DNA from: Escherichia phage vB_EcoM_G2285
Sequence record: MK327933.1
DNA length: 64,000 nt
Direction: 5' to 3' (one strand)
Within the stretch, counting starts at the first letter, position 1, and every line of letters starts with the position of its first letter. Shown piece by piece: positions 6,109-27,236 of the stretch. The translations under genes and the position numbers were made by a program. Under the pieces are notes generated by a model that ran no database searches, had not been told where the DNA came from, and worked only from the letters and a program-made list of their open reading frames with translations.

Positions 6109-7107
6109 TTATGATACTAATTCAATCCATGCAGGACGCAGAACATCTTGCACCATTCGGACTAATTCTTTCTTAACAAGATTCGGATTATCAGATGATG
6201 TTAATACAATACCTTCGCGAGAAGTTTCTTCCAGAATATCTTGAACAGTCAATCCCATCACTTTGCCAAAATCTTTTGGCGTTACATCCCCAATCTTAGA
6301 AATCACATTATTAACACGATTTAATGTAACATAGCAAGCTAGAACATCAAGCAAGTTTTTGTCAATTTCGGTTAATGGAACCTGAGTTTTAATAGGCTTA
6401 TCAGACTTTTTCTTTTCACTGAATTTAGAGTTCTTGCACTTAATAGCTACACGAGTACCGTTTGGCAGCCATTTAGGGAAACAAGGCTTCAGAACATAAC
6501 CTTCTGCTGTATTATTGCCAATAACATTAGCATCAAATACGCAATTATTTGCTTCGACAAGGTCTTCTGACGCAGTAGCATTATAAGCGGCTAAGACGGA
6601 ATCAAGGTCGTTTGGAATCGTGATAAGAGAATCAAATGTTCCACGTCCAAGCATTGGTGCCATTTTAAAACCGAATTCATTACAGAAATCTTGCATTTCG
6701 TAATCGGTCAAATACGTATTATCACCACTTTCTGTATTGATAAGGATATCGAACACATAAAAATCTTTTTCACCGTAGTCAACACCTTTCTGGATTCCAC
6801 CACCAGCGAATTCACCAAAGACCTGATATGATACAGCTCGAGAACTACCCATTACTTCTTGAACGTTTTTAATAGCCTTATCATACTTCTTGAGTACAAT
6901 TTCATAACCATAAAAATCTTCTGCTGGAAGAATAGGGCCTGTGCGCTTGGCGCATGTGACGTTGTCACGTTCAATTATTAACGAGAAGTTGGTCCCATGG
7001 ATTTTCTCACGTGCTACCCAAACACCAGTAGACAAACCATTAGTGTAGAGTTTTTCAATAAACTTAGAGTTATAGTGGTTTTCAAGACTGCTGTATTTCT
7101 TAAACAT
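6109..7107 (-). CDS. rnlB: RNA ligase 2 (Rnl2)
   Basis: 332 aa; nucleotidyltransferase motif I KIHGTN; reads as T4 Rnl2. Confidence 0.9.
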
Positions 7108-11169: not shown

Positions 11170-11400
11170 ATGGTACTTGAATTTAAACAATTTTTATACG
11201 AAGCATCTATTGACGAATTCATGGGTAAAATTGCTAGTTGTCATACCCTAGAAGGGCTTGAAGAATTGGAAGCTTATTATAAGAAACGTATAAAAGAAAC
11301 GGAATTAAAAGATACAGATGATATTTCTGTCAGGGATGCCTTAGCAGGTAAGCGTGCCGAACTTGAAGGCGATGATGAGGATGAGGAAGAAGACTTCTAA
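11170..11400 (+). CDS. uvsW.1: UvsW.1 small acidic protein
   Basis: 76 aa with acidic tail, directly after uvsW. Confidence 0.7.
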   Translation: MVLEFKQFLYEASIDEFMGKIASCHTLEGLEELEAYYKKRIKETELKDTDDISVRDALAGKRAELEGDDEDEEEDF

Positions 11401-25007: not shown

Positions 25008-25471
25008 AAAGAGTCTCTTAATAGGTTTAACACATCAATAAATTCAGCTTCGGTTAGTATTGTATCATCTTTTGTTAGACCACTGGCCATGCTGTGCTTC
25101 AAAATTTTTCCTTTAGAGGCTTGTAAGGCATCACGAAACCCCTTGTTTTGGATCGCGGCTTCAAAATACGCATTTGTGTATAATTCTTTCCACGCTTCGG
25201 AGTATCTTGAAAACGGAACTCCTAACCAGAAGAGAGTCCCACGGTCCTGAGCTCTTGCATAAGACCTTCCAGCTTGCTGTGCGGCCAGTCCTGACAGCCC
25301 AAATATACGTCTTTGTTGTTCAACATTTTTCACCTTACATCCTTGGAGAAATCCTTCAAGACCTCCGAATTGAATACCATCCATAACAAAAGGCCATTGA
25401 GCAAAGTTACTTAATGCACACGACGGCCACTTGAAATTACTTCTTATTTCTAATTCAGACATCTTTAACAC
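25004..25471 (-). CDS. Possible NADAR/YbiA-like (DUF1768) protein (30.3 position)
   Basis: Pattern LSNF...F..DG..F.G.E...Q..K near the N-terminus resembles NADAR; inference, not verified. Confidence 0.45.
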   Translation of the reverse strand: MLKMSELEIRSNFKWPSCALSNFAQWPFVMDGIQFGGLEGFLQGCKVKNVEQQRRIFGLSGLAAQQAGRSYARAQDRGTLFWLGVPFSRYSEAWKELYTNAYFEAAIQNKGFRDALQASKGKILKHSMASGLTKDDTILTEAEFIDVLNLLRDSL

Positions 25472-25673
25472 TTATAATTTCAACATCAGCCCAATGACCG
25501 TATCCAGGTATACGGTCTTCGATAGATAAATTTCTGACATTTTTAGGCATTTTAATTGACGTAACGTATGGTTCTAAACGGTTTTCCGCGTAATATGGAA
25601 AAACGTCGGTTACACGATAAGTAACTTCAATCATTTCCGTACCAAACAATTTCTGGATTAATTTATTCAACAT
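25455..25673 (-). CDS. Hypothetical protein
   Basis: 72-aa ORF with AAAGGG RBS. Confidence 0.45.
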   Translation of the reverse strand: MLNKLIQKLFGTEMIEVTYRVTDVFPYYAENRLEPYVTSIKMPKNVRNLSIEDRIPGYGHWADVEIISVKDV

Positions 25674-25676
25674 GTT

Positions 25677-25901
25677 TCAACCCTTTAATAGGAGATAACT
25701 CTTTACCCATACGTATGTCAGAAGTCCCATCAACCCATTGAACAGCATACGCTTCATTGACAATTCCAGCGGCGGTTTTAAATTCATATACTGCTCAATT
25801 TCACATACTGAACCATTTTTATGTTTCCATAAGCAAATCGTATCAATAGAACCTGCGATACCGTTAGAAACATATTTGCGTTCGAAGTTGGTGTAGTTCA
25901 T
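25677..25901 (-). CDS. Hypothetical protein
   Basis: 74-aa ORF. Confidence 0.4.
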   Translation of the reverse strand: MNYTNFERKYVSNGIAGSIDTICLWKHKNGSVCEIEQYMNLKPPLELSMKRMLFNGLMGLLTYVWVKSYLLLKG

Positions 25902-26008
25902 TTTATTCTCCAGTTGTTTTATTGATTAGGTGGTACAAGTCTATAGTAACACATCCTACAGGAGAGTAAACATCTTTTTTAAACTTTTTCTGCCCTAAAC
26001 GCACAAAA

Positions 26009-26026
26009 GGGAGACCGAAGTCTCCC
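26009..26026 (-). terminator. Hairpin terminator (gggagac-cgaa-gtctccc)
   Basis: Perfect 7-bp stem with CGAA loop, A-run on plus side. Confidence 0.65.
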
Positions 26027-26031
26027 TAAAA

Positions 26032-26211
26032 TTATGCAACAACCTTTCCAAAACGAGAAGCATCATCTCGAAGAACTGCACGTGCTCTGCGCATGATCTT
26101 CTCAACTGTTTGATTAATACGATAGTTCGACCCACGCTTGTATCCAGCGCGTTTAGAGGTACCATCAACTTTCTTTTCAACTGCTTTCTTTGCTTTAGCT
26201 TGTTTTGCCAT
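26032..26211 (-). CDS. Small basic protein, 59 aa (not in the track)
   Basis: Hand translation MAKQAKAKKAVEKKVDGTSKRAGYKRGSNYRINQTVEKIMRRARAVLRDDASRFGKVVA; AAAGAG RBS; terminator directly downstream. Confidence 0.5.
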   Translation of the reverse strand: MAKQAKAKKAVEKKVDGTSKRAGYKRGSNYRINQTVEKIMRRARAVLRDDASRFGKVVA

Positions 26212-26473
26212 TATAAATTCTCTTTAAATGAAAATGCAGGACTTATTGACATTGCCTGCGCAAGCCCTCAAGGGGAACATAGGTTTTGGATATTTAACGA
26301 CAGGATAACCATAAACCTGTCATCATACCAACCACGACTTAGACAGATAACCTTTTCTGACGCGTGATAGTACAAAATACATTCAAGAGGTACACCGTAA
26401 AACTGCCGTGGTCTTAAAACTATAATGATTCGCAAATCATTAATCAGACAGTTCGACGGCTCCTCGATTTAAC

Positions 26474-26722
26474 TTACTTCAGGGTAATAACAAAATGACG
26501 TACTGCTTTACGAGCTGCAGAAGCCAAAGGCTTAGCATATTTCAGTTCATCTTTTGCTTCCAGTTCAGAGGCCAAAGCTGCCTGTACCGGGTTCAGATGT
26601 TTGAAATAACGCAGGATTTCCAGTGCTTCGGCTTCAACATCAATCGACGCGCCGTAGTTTTCGTGACCGTTATTCCATGCGTTTCGTTGCAGTTCAAGAG
26701 CGTGTTGTAATTGTTTAATCAT
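26474..26722 (-). CDS. rIII: rIII lysis-inhibition accessory protein
   Basis: 82 aa (T4 rIII 82); position below gene 31. Confidence 0.75.
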   Translation of the reverse strand: MIKQLQHALELQRNAWNNGHENYGASIDVEAEALEILRYFKHLNPVQAALASELEAKDELKYAKPLASAARKAVRHFVITLK

Positions 26723-26838
26723 TTTAAATTCTCAATTCGAGATAATATTTAGTAGCCACGTTCGTCTGAATTTCACCTTCTTTCGACAAGTCTCTCAGTT
26801 GTAGGCTACCGCTTAGAAGAGTGTTCTCTTCATATAGT

Positions 26839-26846
26839 TATTTATA
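26839..26846 (-). promoter_or_regulatory. Late promoter for rIII (TATTTATA on plus)
   Basis: Exact match directly below the gene 31 stop. Confidence 0.5.
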
Positions 26847-27179
26847 TCACTTATAAAGACACGGAATAGCTTTATAGTGGCATGTTACGAATTTCTGTTT
26901 AATTTCTTTAGGTTGTTTAAGTCCCAAAGCCACAAATGGATGTGGAACATTTCGAATTTGTCCAACTGGTAGTGGAGTCAAATCACCGACTTCAACAAAA
27001 CCTTCAGGAACATCAGGACCCACAGAATGAACTACACATAGTTCAGGAACTTCACCTTGAACACGTTTACCAATCACAAGTCCTGATTCGGTAACTTCTT
27101 CATCACCTGCTTGAGCGGGTTCAGAAACCAGAATGACATATTCACCAACAGCACGAATTGGGAGTTGTACTTCAGACAT
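26847..27179 (-). CDS. 31: Co-chaperonin gp31 (GroES analogue)
   Basis: 110 aa; reads as T4 gp31. Confidence 0.9.
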
Positions 27180-27236
27180 CTTATTTCCTTGTTGTTTGAC
27201 GATAGATTAATAATACCATACTATTCGTAAAGCATA

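Follow-up and report, generated by a model that had tools for sequence, protein, structure and literature searches.

We examined the 262-nt gap that separates gene rIII from a small downstream gene, identified below as the counterpart of T4 gene 30.9, in a 64,000-nt stretch of DNA from Escherichia phage vB_EcoM_G2285 (sequence record MK327933.1; the whole stretch is hereafter called the window). The source of the window is a Mosigvirus, a T4-like phage. Our results make it very probable that this gap is transcribed and holds a series of RNA structures maintained by selection, here called modules, and that one of them, module D, represents a pseudoknot motif that is new and widely conserved. 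Even in T4, the reference phage, the annotation is blank for the corresponding 244 bases between rIII (NC_000866, 130785-131033) and 30.9 (130364-130540); they hold several selected RNA structures, none of them in Rfam. All relatives examined had D, and a copy of the antitoxin RNA ToxI was found at the same site in T4 itself and in many coliphages. On the minus strand of the window, gene 31 (26847-27179) is followed by rIII, the gap (26212-26473), the 59-aa open reading frame (ORF) of 30.9, a hairpin and more small genes. The coordinates of the features are collected in Table 1.

An earlier note on this DNA had pointed to a long non-coding stretch below rIII. The stretch indeed exists, and when the gap was used as a query of 262 bases in blastn, 773 phage records including T4 were matched. 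Between the window and T4, the aligned part of the gap was 97.2% identical (206/212), compared with 86.7% for the rIII coding sequence and 91.5% for 30.9. Such identity in the gap despite 87-91% in the flanks points either to very strong constraint or to a recent exchange of the segment between genera. The statement that the gap has no minus-strand ORF of any size needs correction, since a 55-aa ORF starting with TTG lies at 26268-26435. This ORF is split between frames by a one-base indel in the closest relative (L001; L with a number designates a locus or contig in our comparison) and is cut to 20 aa in T4; hence it is not considered to be a gene. The annotators of related genomes call differing small ORFs (36-60 aa) in the gap, and no ORF was common across genera when the ORFs of the relatives were compared.

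Known elements were also searched for. A permissive scan of 25500-27200 with the covariance models of Rfam 15 (E<=10) matched no family in a meaningful way, and no match was obtained in 13 related loci at E<=1. No tRNA was found in the gap, no tandem repeats were found in 25950-26900, and a scan of 26212-26473 found no consensus promoter or terminator. Transcription of rIII in T4 starts at promoters of the early, middle and late classes (PMC9409239). Because no terminator precedes the one at 26005-26026, the gap should likewise be transcribed through most of infection.

For comparison, the rIII-30.9 gap was taken from 7 GenBank and about 40 IMG/VR loci, which were found via gp30.9 or via DNA patterns. 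Several conserved folds with compensatory changes were recognised on the gene strand. The earlier note had proposed a small RNA or regulatory leader containing one perfect hairpin and a second GC-rich stem; the RNA part of the proposal was thus supported, and it was understated. The perfect hairpin is present, at 26424-26441 instead of about 26413-26432, and GC-rich stems were confirmed as CCCC/GGG (26261-26278) and GCAGG/CCUGC (within 26236-26261).

Module D was the most informative of these folds. It is an H-type pseudoknot in which stem S1 is formed by 26316-26323 and 26297-26304 (AUGACAGG with CCUGUCGU), and stem S2 by the loop GGUU (26307-26310) and AACC (26282-26285), with UAAAUAUCCAA as the A-rich loop 3 or linker. 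In an alignment of 23 distinct sequences from different genera, 91.4% of the pair cells could pair, compared with 68.6% after shuffling. Changes on both sides were seen in 12 of the 17 pairs, and none of 500 shuffles reached the observed value on any measure. When the partners were slid by 1-3 columns as a control, pairing fell to 27-56%. Furthermore, an independent MAFFT alignment had hardly any gaps and ran colinear with the hand alignment. S2 covaries freely and has between 4 bp (window and T4) and 9 bp (UUAGUAGUU/AACUACUAA in L022). In 20 of the 23 sequences a U.G wobble forms the second pair of S1, and pairs 9-80 and 15-74 of module B, described below, are invariant G.U wobbles. These pairs would be A.C mismatches on the opposite strand; hence the strand that folds is the gene strand.

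The D of the window scored 66.2 bits (E 9e-15) against the covariance model. When the window and 25 loci (297 kb) were searched with this model, exactly one D was found per T4-like locus, always in the rIII-30.9 gap; no second copy was found elsewhere in the window. One exception to this location was L036, an uncultured 55-kb phage contig, in which a D copy (60.7 bits, E 3e-13) lies at 6797-6848 on the minus strand. This copy most resembles the CC31-type D. It occupies the 58-nt spacer between tRNA-Asp (6855-6929) and tRNA-Pro (6720-6796) in a cluster of 12 tRNAs, and neither rIII nor 30.9 was present within the 12.5 kb examined. The tRNA-cluster stretch of L036 matched cultured phages in its tRNA parts only. 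A pattern search for D in 185,579 species genomes (one genome each) returned 83 matches, none of which had the S1/S2 architecture after filtering, and they were attributed to chance. D was also considered as a micro-ORF (AUGAUG...UAA) and was rejected, as neither the frame nor the stop codon is conserved.

Module B, the first fold of the window's gap, is an 89-nt branched hairpin with a minimum free energy of -26.4 kcal/mol (z -3.0). Among 16 distinct sequences, standard pairs occupied 99.3% of the pair cells and five pairs were changed on both sides. None of 500 shuffles reached the observed values on four of five measures; on further pair types, 24 of 500 did. The double changes convert CCGU/ACGG to CCAU/AUGG, and AACUGUC/GGCAGUU to AACUGUU/AACAGUU or AAUUGUC/GACAAUU. 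The inner hairpin, which is the one pointed out in the earlier note, is also kept through double changes in L055, where AAUGAUU/AAUCAUU becomes AUCGAUU/AAUCGGU.

The smaller modules were compared between the loci. In module C, which is absent from T4, the inner stem is replaced by CAGC/GCUG in L008 and L027, and the outer stem by GCUCUAUG/CAUAGAGC in L014, as judged by eye. Module E1 was present in most related loci at varying positions, being the first element of the gap in L014, L027, L029 and L032 and a later one elsewhere. Module E2 is the last element ahead of the ribosome-binding site of 30.9. In L028 and L030 its stem is swapped for GAACUGG/CCAGUUC and the loop is unchanged; its folding energy by itself is not distinctive. 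A regular-expression scan of the window for all modules revealed no further copies. An E1-like string, CCCTAGAAGGGCTTG, was seen at 11246-11260 on the plus strand within a 76-aa ORF (11170-11400), and is probably a chance match.

The content and the order of the modules varied between genera: A, B, C, F, G and H were gained, lost and reordered, and D was constant. The order is B-C-D-E1-E2 in the window, A-B-C-D-E1-E2 in the closest Mosigviruses, A-B-D-E1-E2 in T4, and A-B-F-D-E1-E2 in L006, L040 and L048. More distant arrangements are G-D-A-F-E1-H (L010), D-A-F-E1-G' (L020), F-D-E1-G' (L022), E1-D-C'' (L027), E1-F-D-hairpin (L032) and E1-D-A-C'' (L148). The distance of D from the rIII stop codon ranged from 0 to about 150-300 nt. 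Module H, a nested hairpin, lies in the 31-rIII gap in the window and T4, and directly upstream of 30.9 in the L010-type and Klebsiella-type relatives. The varying order and content, the varying distance of D and the switch of H between gaps argue for the modules as independent units and against one leader of fixed geometry. Their shuffling, together with the D copy in the tRNA cluster, favours autonomous RNAs over a fixed leader.

Two further modules occurred in the relatives and not in the window. Module F is a multi-helix RNA of about 135 nt with the invariant sequence GCUAAYGGUGUGCAACAGAU, found in L006 (about 815-950), L010, L014, L018, L022, L031, L032 and others. It is confined to the rIII-30.9 gap, where it can precede or follow D. 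Compensatory changes were seen in 16 of its 38 predicted pairs and no Rfam family matched it; it looks like another new RNA family. It was considered as a relative of rnaC or rnaD of T4, and no evident similarity was seen in a by-eye comparison. In module G (L010, L017, L018, L020 and L022), an outer stem is combined with CCCA, with a hairpin whose UGUACG loop is conserved, and with GUAA. The two stems covary between genera, and the place of the module in the gap varies.

Module A was compared with host-borne sequences through the gap of L025, which contains G, D, A, F, two more hairpins, E1 and H. In a search of plasmids and of all complete E. coli genomes, the matches were restricted to positions 88-117 of this gap, corresponding to module A. 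They were 90-93% identical, occurred at 2-10 places per record and were mostly in small mobilisable plasmids. In plasmid pNMEC-O75B they form an array of 5.6 x 36 nt, AGGTGATTTGCTACCTTTAAGTGCAGCTAGAAATTC, directly upstream of a gene annotated as 'type III toxin-antitoxin system ToxN/AbiQ family toxin'. Module A thus represents one unit of ToxI, the 36-nt antitoxin repeat known from the ToxIN type III toxin-antitoxin (abortive-infection) systems. The main difference of the Mosigvirus unit, AGGTGATTCGCTACCTTAAGTGCGGCTAGAAAATC, from the array is a compensatory change from U-A to C-G. The T4 unit, GGAGATTCACTGCCTTAGTGTGAGCTAAAT, is more diverged, and its stem 2 is kept via CAC/GUG. Indeed, the two inner positions of stem 2 could pair in each of the 13 distinct units, from phages and plasmids, that were compared, with three and two pair types, respectively. 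In T4 (L007; NC_000866 about 130745-130775) and in most Mosigvirus relatives, with L001 (998-1030), L003 and L004 as examples, the module lies directly after the rIII stop codon. The window, like moha and CEV1, lacks it owing to a clean 32-nt deletion right after that codon.

Phage phiTE is known to escape ToxIN through expression of an expanded pseudo-ToxI RNA (PMC3475682). In the papers searched, both those on T4, toxIN and TifA and the wider literature, we came upon no reference to a ToxI-like sequence in T4, and searches for reports of a structured RNA or a pseudo-ToxI at the rIII-30.9 site of T4 were likewise negative. Single ToxI-like units, or 1.5-2 units, were also observed in intergenic regions of unrelated IMG/VR phage contigs (L144-L153, 5-162 kb). 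One of these, L146, is the 142,349-bp genome of phiTE, in which pseudo-ToxI was discovered, and it was recovered with the same search pattern. Such phage units often precede a terminator-like hairpin or, in phiTE, a tRNA-like T-arm. From these sequence matches, pseudo-ToxI seems to occur in more phages than the single published example.

Table 1. Features in and around the rIII-30.9 gap, in positions of the window
Feature	Position	Strand	Basis
T4-type early promoter-like GTTTAC-N17-TACTAT	25943..25971	-	Read from sequence; matches PST/T4 PeSL consensus
Intrinsic terminator at the end of the 31-rIII-30.9 transcription unit, GGGAGAC-UUCG-GUCUCCC + UUUU	26005..26026	-	dG -19.2 kcal/mol; z -5.3 vs shuffles
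Gene 30.9, 59-aa basic protein	26032..26211	-	PHROG 1427 (E 1.5e-30); synteny with T4 30.9
Shine-Dalgarno-like AAAGAGAA of gene 30.9	26218..26225	-	Read from sequence
Module E2, hairpin GCAGG/CCUGC with conserved 14-nt loop CAAUGUCAAUAAGU, then AUUUUCAUUU	26236..26261	-	Comparison of loci
Module E1, small hairpin GUUCCCC-UUGA-GGGCUUG (consensus GUWCCC..GGRCUUG)	26261..26278	-	Comparison of loci
Module D, H-type pseudoknot	26276..26327	-	Covariance model and covariation
Module C, nested hairpin; outer AUCACG/CGUGGU, inner CAGA/UCUG, conserved loop AAAGGUUA, 3' UCUAAGU	26331..26368	-	By eye
Module B, 89-nt branched hairpin; stems GAGG/CCUC, GCCGU/ACGGU, GAACUGUC/GGCAGUUU and inner hairpin	26380..26469	-	Fold and covariation
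Inner hairpin of B, AAUGAUU-UGCG-AAUCAUU	26424..26441	-	Located in sequence
rIII, 82 aa, upstream neighbour of the gap	26474..26722	-	PHROG 1457 lysis inhibition accessory protein (E 3.8e-43); relatives annotate rIII
Module H, nested hairpin in the 31-rIII gap (GGUAGCC...GUCGAAAG...GGCUACU)	26751..26810	-	Comparison with relatives and fold

The protein encoded downstream of the gap had been described as an unannotated 59-aa basic protein. Its lysine/arginine-rich ORF with an ATG start is present, as are a Shine-Dalgarno-like AAGAG 8 nt upstream and the perfect terminator hairpin 3' of the gene. The ORF is, in fact, T4 gene 30.9. Most relatives, hundreds in all, carry an annotation for it, usually that of a hypothetical protein, and ATK47 and T4 give it the name 30.9. 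Accordingly, this part of the earlier note was mostly a rediscovery of a known conserved hypothetical gene. The assignment to PHROG 1427 agreed by similarity and by synteny, the gene lying 3' of rIII with the terminator next to it. In tblastn, gp30.9 was 95% identical to the T4 protein over residues 17-56, and homologues were found in 1003 phage records, with hosts including Escherichia, Klebsiella, Enterobacter, Yersinia, Salmonella, Serratia and Citrobacter. All 64 homologous clusters with a source name came from T4-like phages or phage-like contigs, one of them being the old UniProt entry 'Uncharacterized 11.1 kDa protein in Gp30-rIII intergenic region'. The conserved core reads SKRAGYKRGSNxRINQTVEKIMRRARAVLRDDASRFGK, and no Pfam family matched gp30.9. 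An AlphaFold2 model based on a 33-sequence alignment (mean pLDDT 68.8, pTM 0.37) showed a disordered Lys-rich N-terminus and one long basic helix (residues 20-54), and these features of the model make a nucleic-acid-binding role plausible. PMC9409239 cites a paper on the in vivo expression of 30.9.

The 901 bases around the locus matched 768 phage records, with up to 98.9% identity to Mosigvirus genomes such as mar005P1, JK42 and G53. The GC-rich hairpin with a U run 3' of 30.9 was missed by a simple terminator scan and confirmed by folding, and G53 and ATK47 annotate the same element as a terminator. Together with the promoter-like site next to it, it forms a composite (25943-26026) of the PeSL type, that is, a stem-loop combined with a promoter of the PST/T4 consensus TTTACW-N17-TAYWAT (PMC4122927). 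In 25455-25971 the window is without gene 30.8, which its closest relatives have. The composite runs directly into a 74-aa ORF (25677-25901), of which the first 40 aa match the Gp30.7 family (PF06919) and the remainder is unrelated; a 72-aa PHROG 2042 gene comes next. This arrangement looks like PeSL-type shuffling.

On the other side of rIII, module H showed compensatory differences between relatives in its outer stem (GGUAGCC/GGCUACU and GGGAGC/GCUCCC) and in its inner stem (CUGA/UCAG and CCGA/UCGG). A weak promoter-like TTCAGA-17-TATTAT (26770-26742) overlaps it. The Shine-Dalgarno sequence of rIII is within a small hairpin, UCUC-GAAU-UGAGA at about 26725-26745 of the window and ACCUC-AUUU-GAGG in many genera. 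Upstream of this hairpin are a late promoter, TATAAATA (26839-26846 of the window), and variable nested hairpins.

As for the function of the gap, we tentatively prefer, with a little less than even confidence, the explanation that the modules are autonomous RNAs that form part of the 31-rIII-30.9 transcript and serve in trans as protein-binding or decoy RNAs. In this explanation the gap is no mere spacer: it is the transcribed, non-coding part of the 31-rIII-30.9 transcription unit and is made up of four or five modules (B, C, D and E1/E2), each folding alone and selected as RNA. The site behaves as a cassette locus for RNA modules across the T4-like phages, with D constant and the others swappable. 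Made in quantity throughout infection within mRNA from early, middle and late promoters, and possibly processed from it, the modules would then bind or decoy their targets in counter-defence or host take-over. An E2-type hairpin would separate them from the small basic gp30.9, which may be their partner. We favour action in trans because the modules are shuffled like genes, because one of them is an antitoxin RNA with a documented precedent in counter-defence, and because D was captured into a tRNA cluster. If this is true, RNA-based counter-defence would extend from one Pectobacterium phage to the T-even phages, and the gap would offer a set of small, testable RNAs.

Several points weigh against this explanation and its basis. 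T4 had to be experimentally evolved to overcome ToxIN (PMC9391042); its diverged module A is therefore evidently insufficient as protection alone. The universality and near-invariance of D are as compatible with a role in cis or in housekeeping as with one in counter-defence. An E2, H or G' hairpin is always adjacent to the ribosome-binding site of 30.9, suggesting some cis regulation. The gap of the window, with B, C, D and E, gave no relevant match in BLAST against plasmids and 5,426 E. coli genomes. In addition, the 23 D sequences were placed by hand in structural columns, so that their alignment was fitted to the structure, and the module B sequences are closely related to one another.

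The first alternative is that the gap is a cis-acting mRNA architecture, namely the 3' untranslated region of rIII joined to the 5' leader of 30.9. Its folds would hold up exonucleases or RNase E and so determine the half-life of the message, and they would adjust partial termination or the translation of 30.9. We regard this as possible, though somewhat doubtful. The region is within one transcription unit that ends at a strong terminator, the constant hairpin next to the 30.9 ribosome-binding site lies just upstream of the Shine-Dalgarno sequence, and the neighbouring 31-rIII gap also carries hairpins, one of which sequesters the rIII Shine-Dalgarno sequence in many relatives. The lack of a host counterpart for the window's own modules is also in keeping with it. 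However, module order and content vary, D can be 0 to about 300 nt from either gene, one copy of D stands between tRNAs, remote from both rIII and 30.9, and one module of the gap is an antitoxin RNA with no obvious cis role. The trans and cis explanations are not mutually exclusive, and E2, beside the ribosome-binding site, may well act in cis. If cis action is true, the gap would be an unusually elaborate, modular mRNA control region.

A further reading is that the rIII-30.9 gap is an RNA-based anti-defence island, in which D, B, C, F and G would inhibit or decoy RNA-binding immune effectors beside the ToxI mimic, maybe together with gp30.9. We consider this rather unlikely.

It is improbable that the modules are recombination debris, or mobile DNA cassettes like PeSLs that persist by promoting shuffling and have no function as RNA. 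The locus is in the hyperplastic part of T4-type genomes, the PeSL-type composite stands exactly where gene 30.8 is missing, and the modules are clearly shuffled. Yet the compensatory double substitutions and the strand-specific G.U pairs show selection on RNA helices, nucleotide identity is above that of the flanking genes, and the modules are without the promoter consensus that defines PeSLs.

A self-cleaving ribozyme, in which D alone or with E1 would process the transcript in a pistol-like manner, is more improbable still. D is a hairpin whose loop pairs downstream, followed by GUUAAAUA, and E1 is a small hairpin nearby. In this D resembles the P1-pseudoknot-linker part of the env25 pistol ribozyme, and its A-rich tail resembles the preQ1-I aptamers, although the Rfam models supported neither likeness. 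The permissive Rfam scan yielded no pistol or other ribozyme match, D has no room for the P2 strand of pistol, and E1 is not always beside D and can be on either side of it. Finally, a hidden small protein gene in the gap, for which the TTG-started ORF and the ORFs called by some annotators of related gaps would speak, is hardly credible in view of the disruption of that ORF in L001 and T4, the lack of any ORF common across genera, and substitutions that follow helix covariation and not codon periodicity.

Among the closest known systems is the pseudo-ToxI of phiTE (Blower et al. 2012, PMC3475682), which, like module A, is a phage non-coding RNA that copies the ToxI repeat. It differs in that the window is without A, and that the T4-type copies are single and lie within an mRNA beside unrelated folds. 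Mimicry of host RNA is unsupported for B, C, D and E, because no counterpart of them was found in plasmids or E. coli genomes, nor any of D in the species scan. With regard to the type III antitoxins (ToxI, CptI and TenpI), small H-type pseudoknots whose second stem covaries and which contain an A-rich stretch (PMC12283969), D shares the architecture of a pseudoknot with an A-rich single strand. This architecture is generic and does not establish membership. D has no tandem repeat, no adjoining toxin gene and no similarity to a host locus. In the gap of the window, no similarity to toxI repeats of plasmids or E. coli genomes was found, such similarity being confined to module A of the relatives. 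No tandem array of 30-60-nt repeats was present in 25950-26900, and no ToxN/AbiQ, CptN or TenpN gene was adjacent, the downstream gene encoding a 59-aa protein with no Pfam match and one predicted helix.

PeSLs (PMC2839356, PMC4122927) resemble the modules in being short conserved non-coding cassettes tied to shuffling in hyperplastic regions. They are simple stem-loops with a promoter, whereas the modules are pseudoknots or multi-helix folds selected at the RNA level; no promoter of the PeSL consensus was found inside 26212-26473, and the separate element at 25943-26026 has one. The T4 RNAs rnaC and rnaD, encoded in the tRNA cluster, are likewise structured phage RNAs co-transcribed with other genes, and a D copy is in a tRNA cluster; by eye, they have no sequence similarity to the gap modules.

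The leader of T4 gene 32 mRNA holds an H-type pseudoknot, and D shares with it both this fold and a place in a T-even mRNA leader. The gene 32 pseudoknot has a fixed position in the autoregulatory operator of its own gene, whereas D has no fixed distance to any gene. We regard the RNA motifs of the rIII-30.9 gap as new and of a known general kind.

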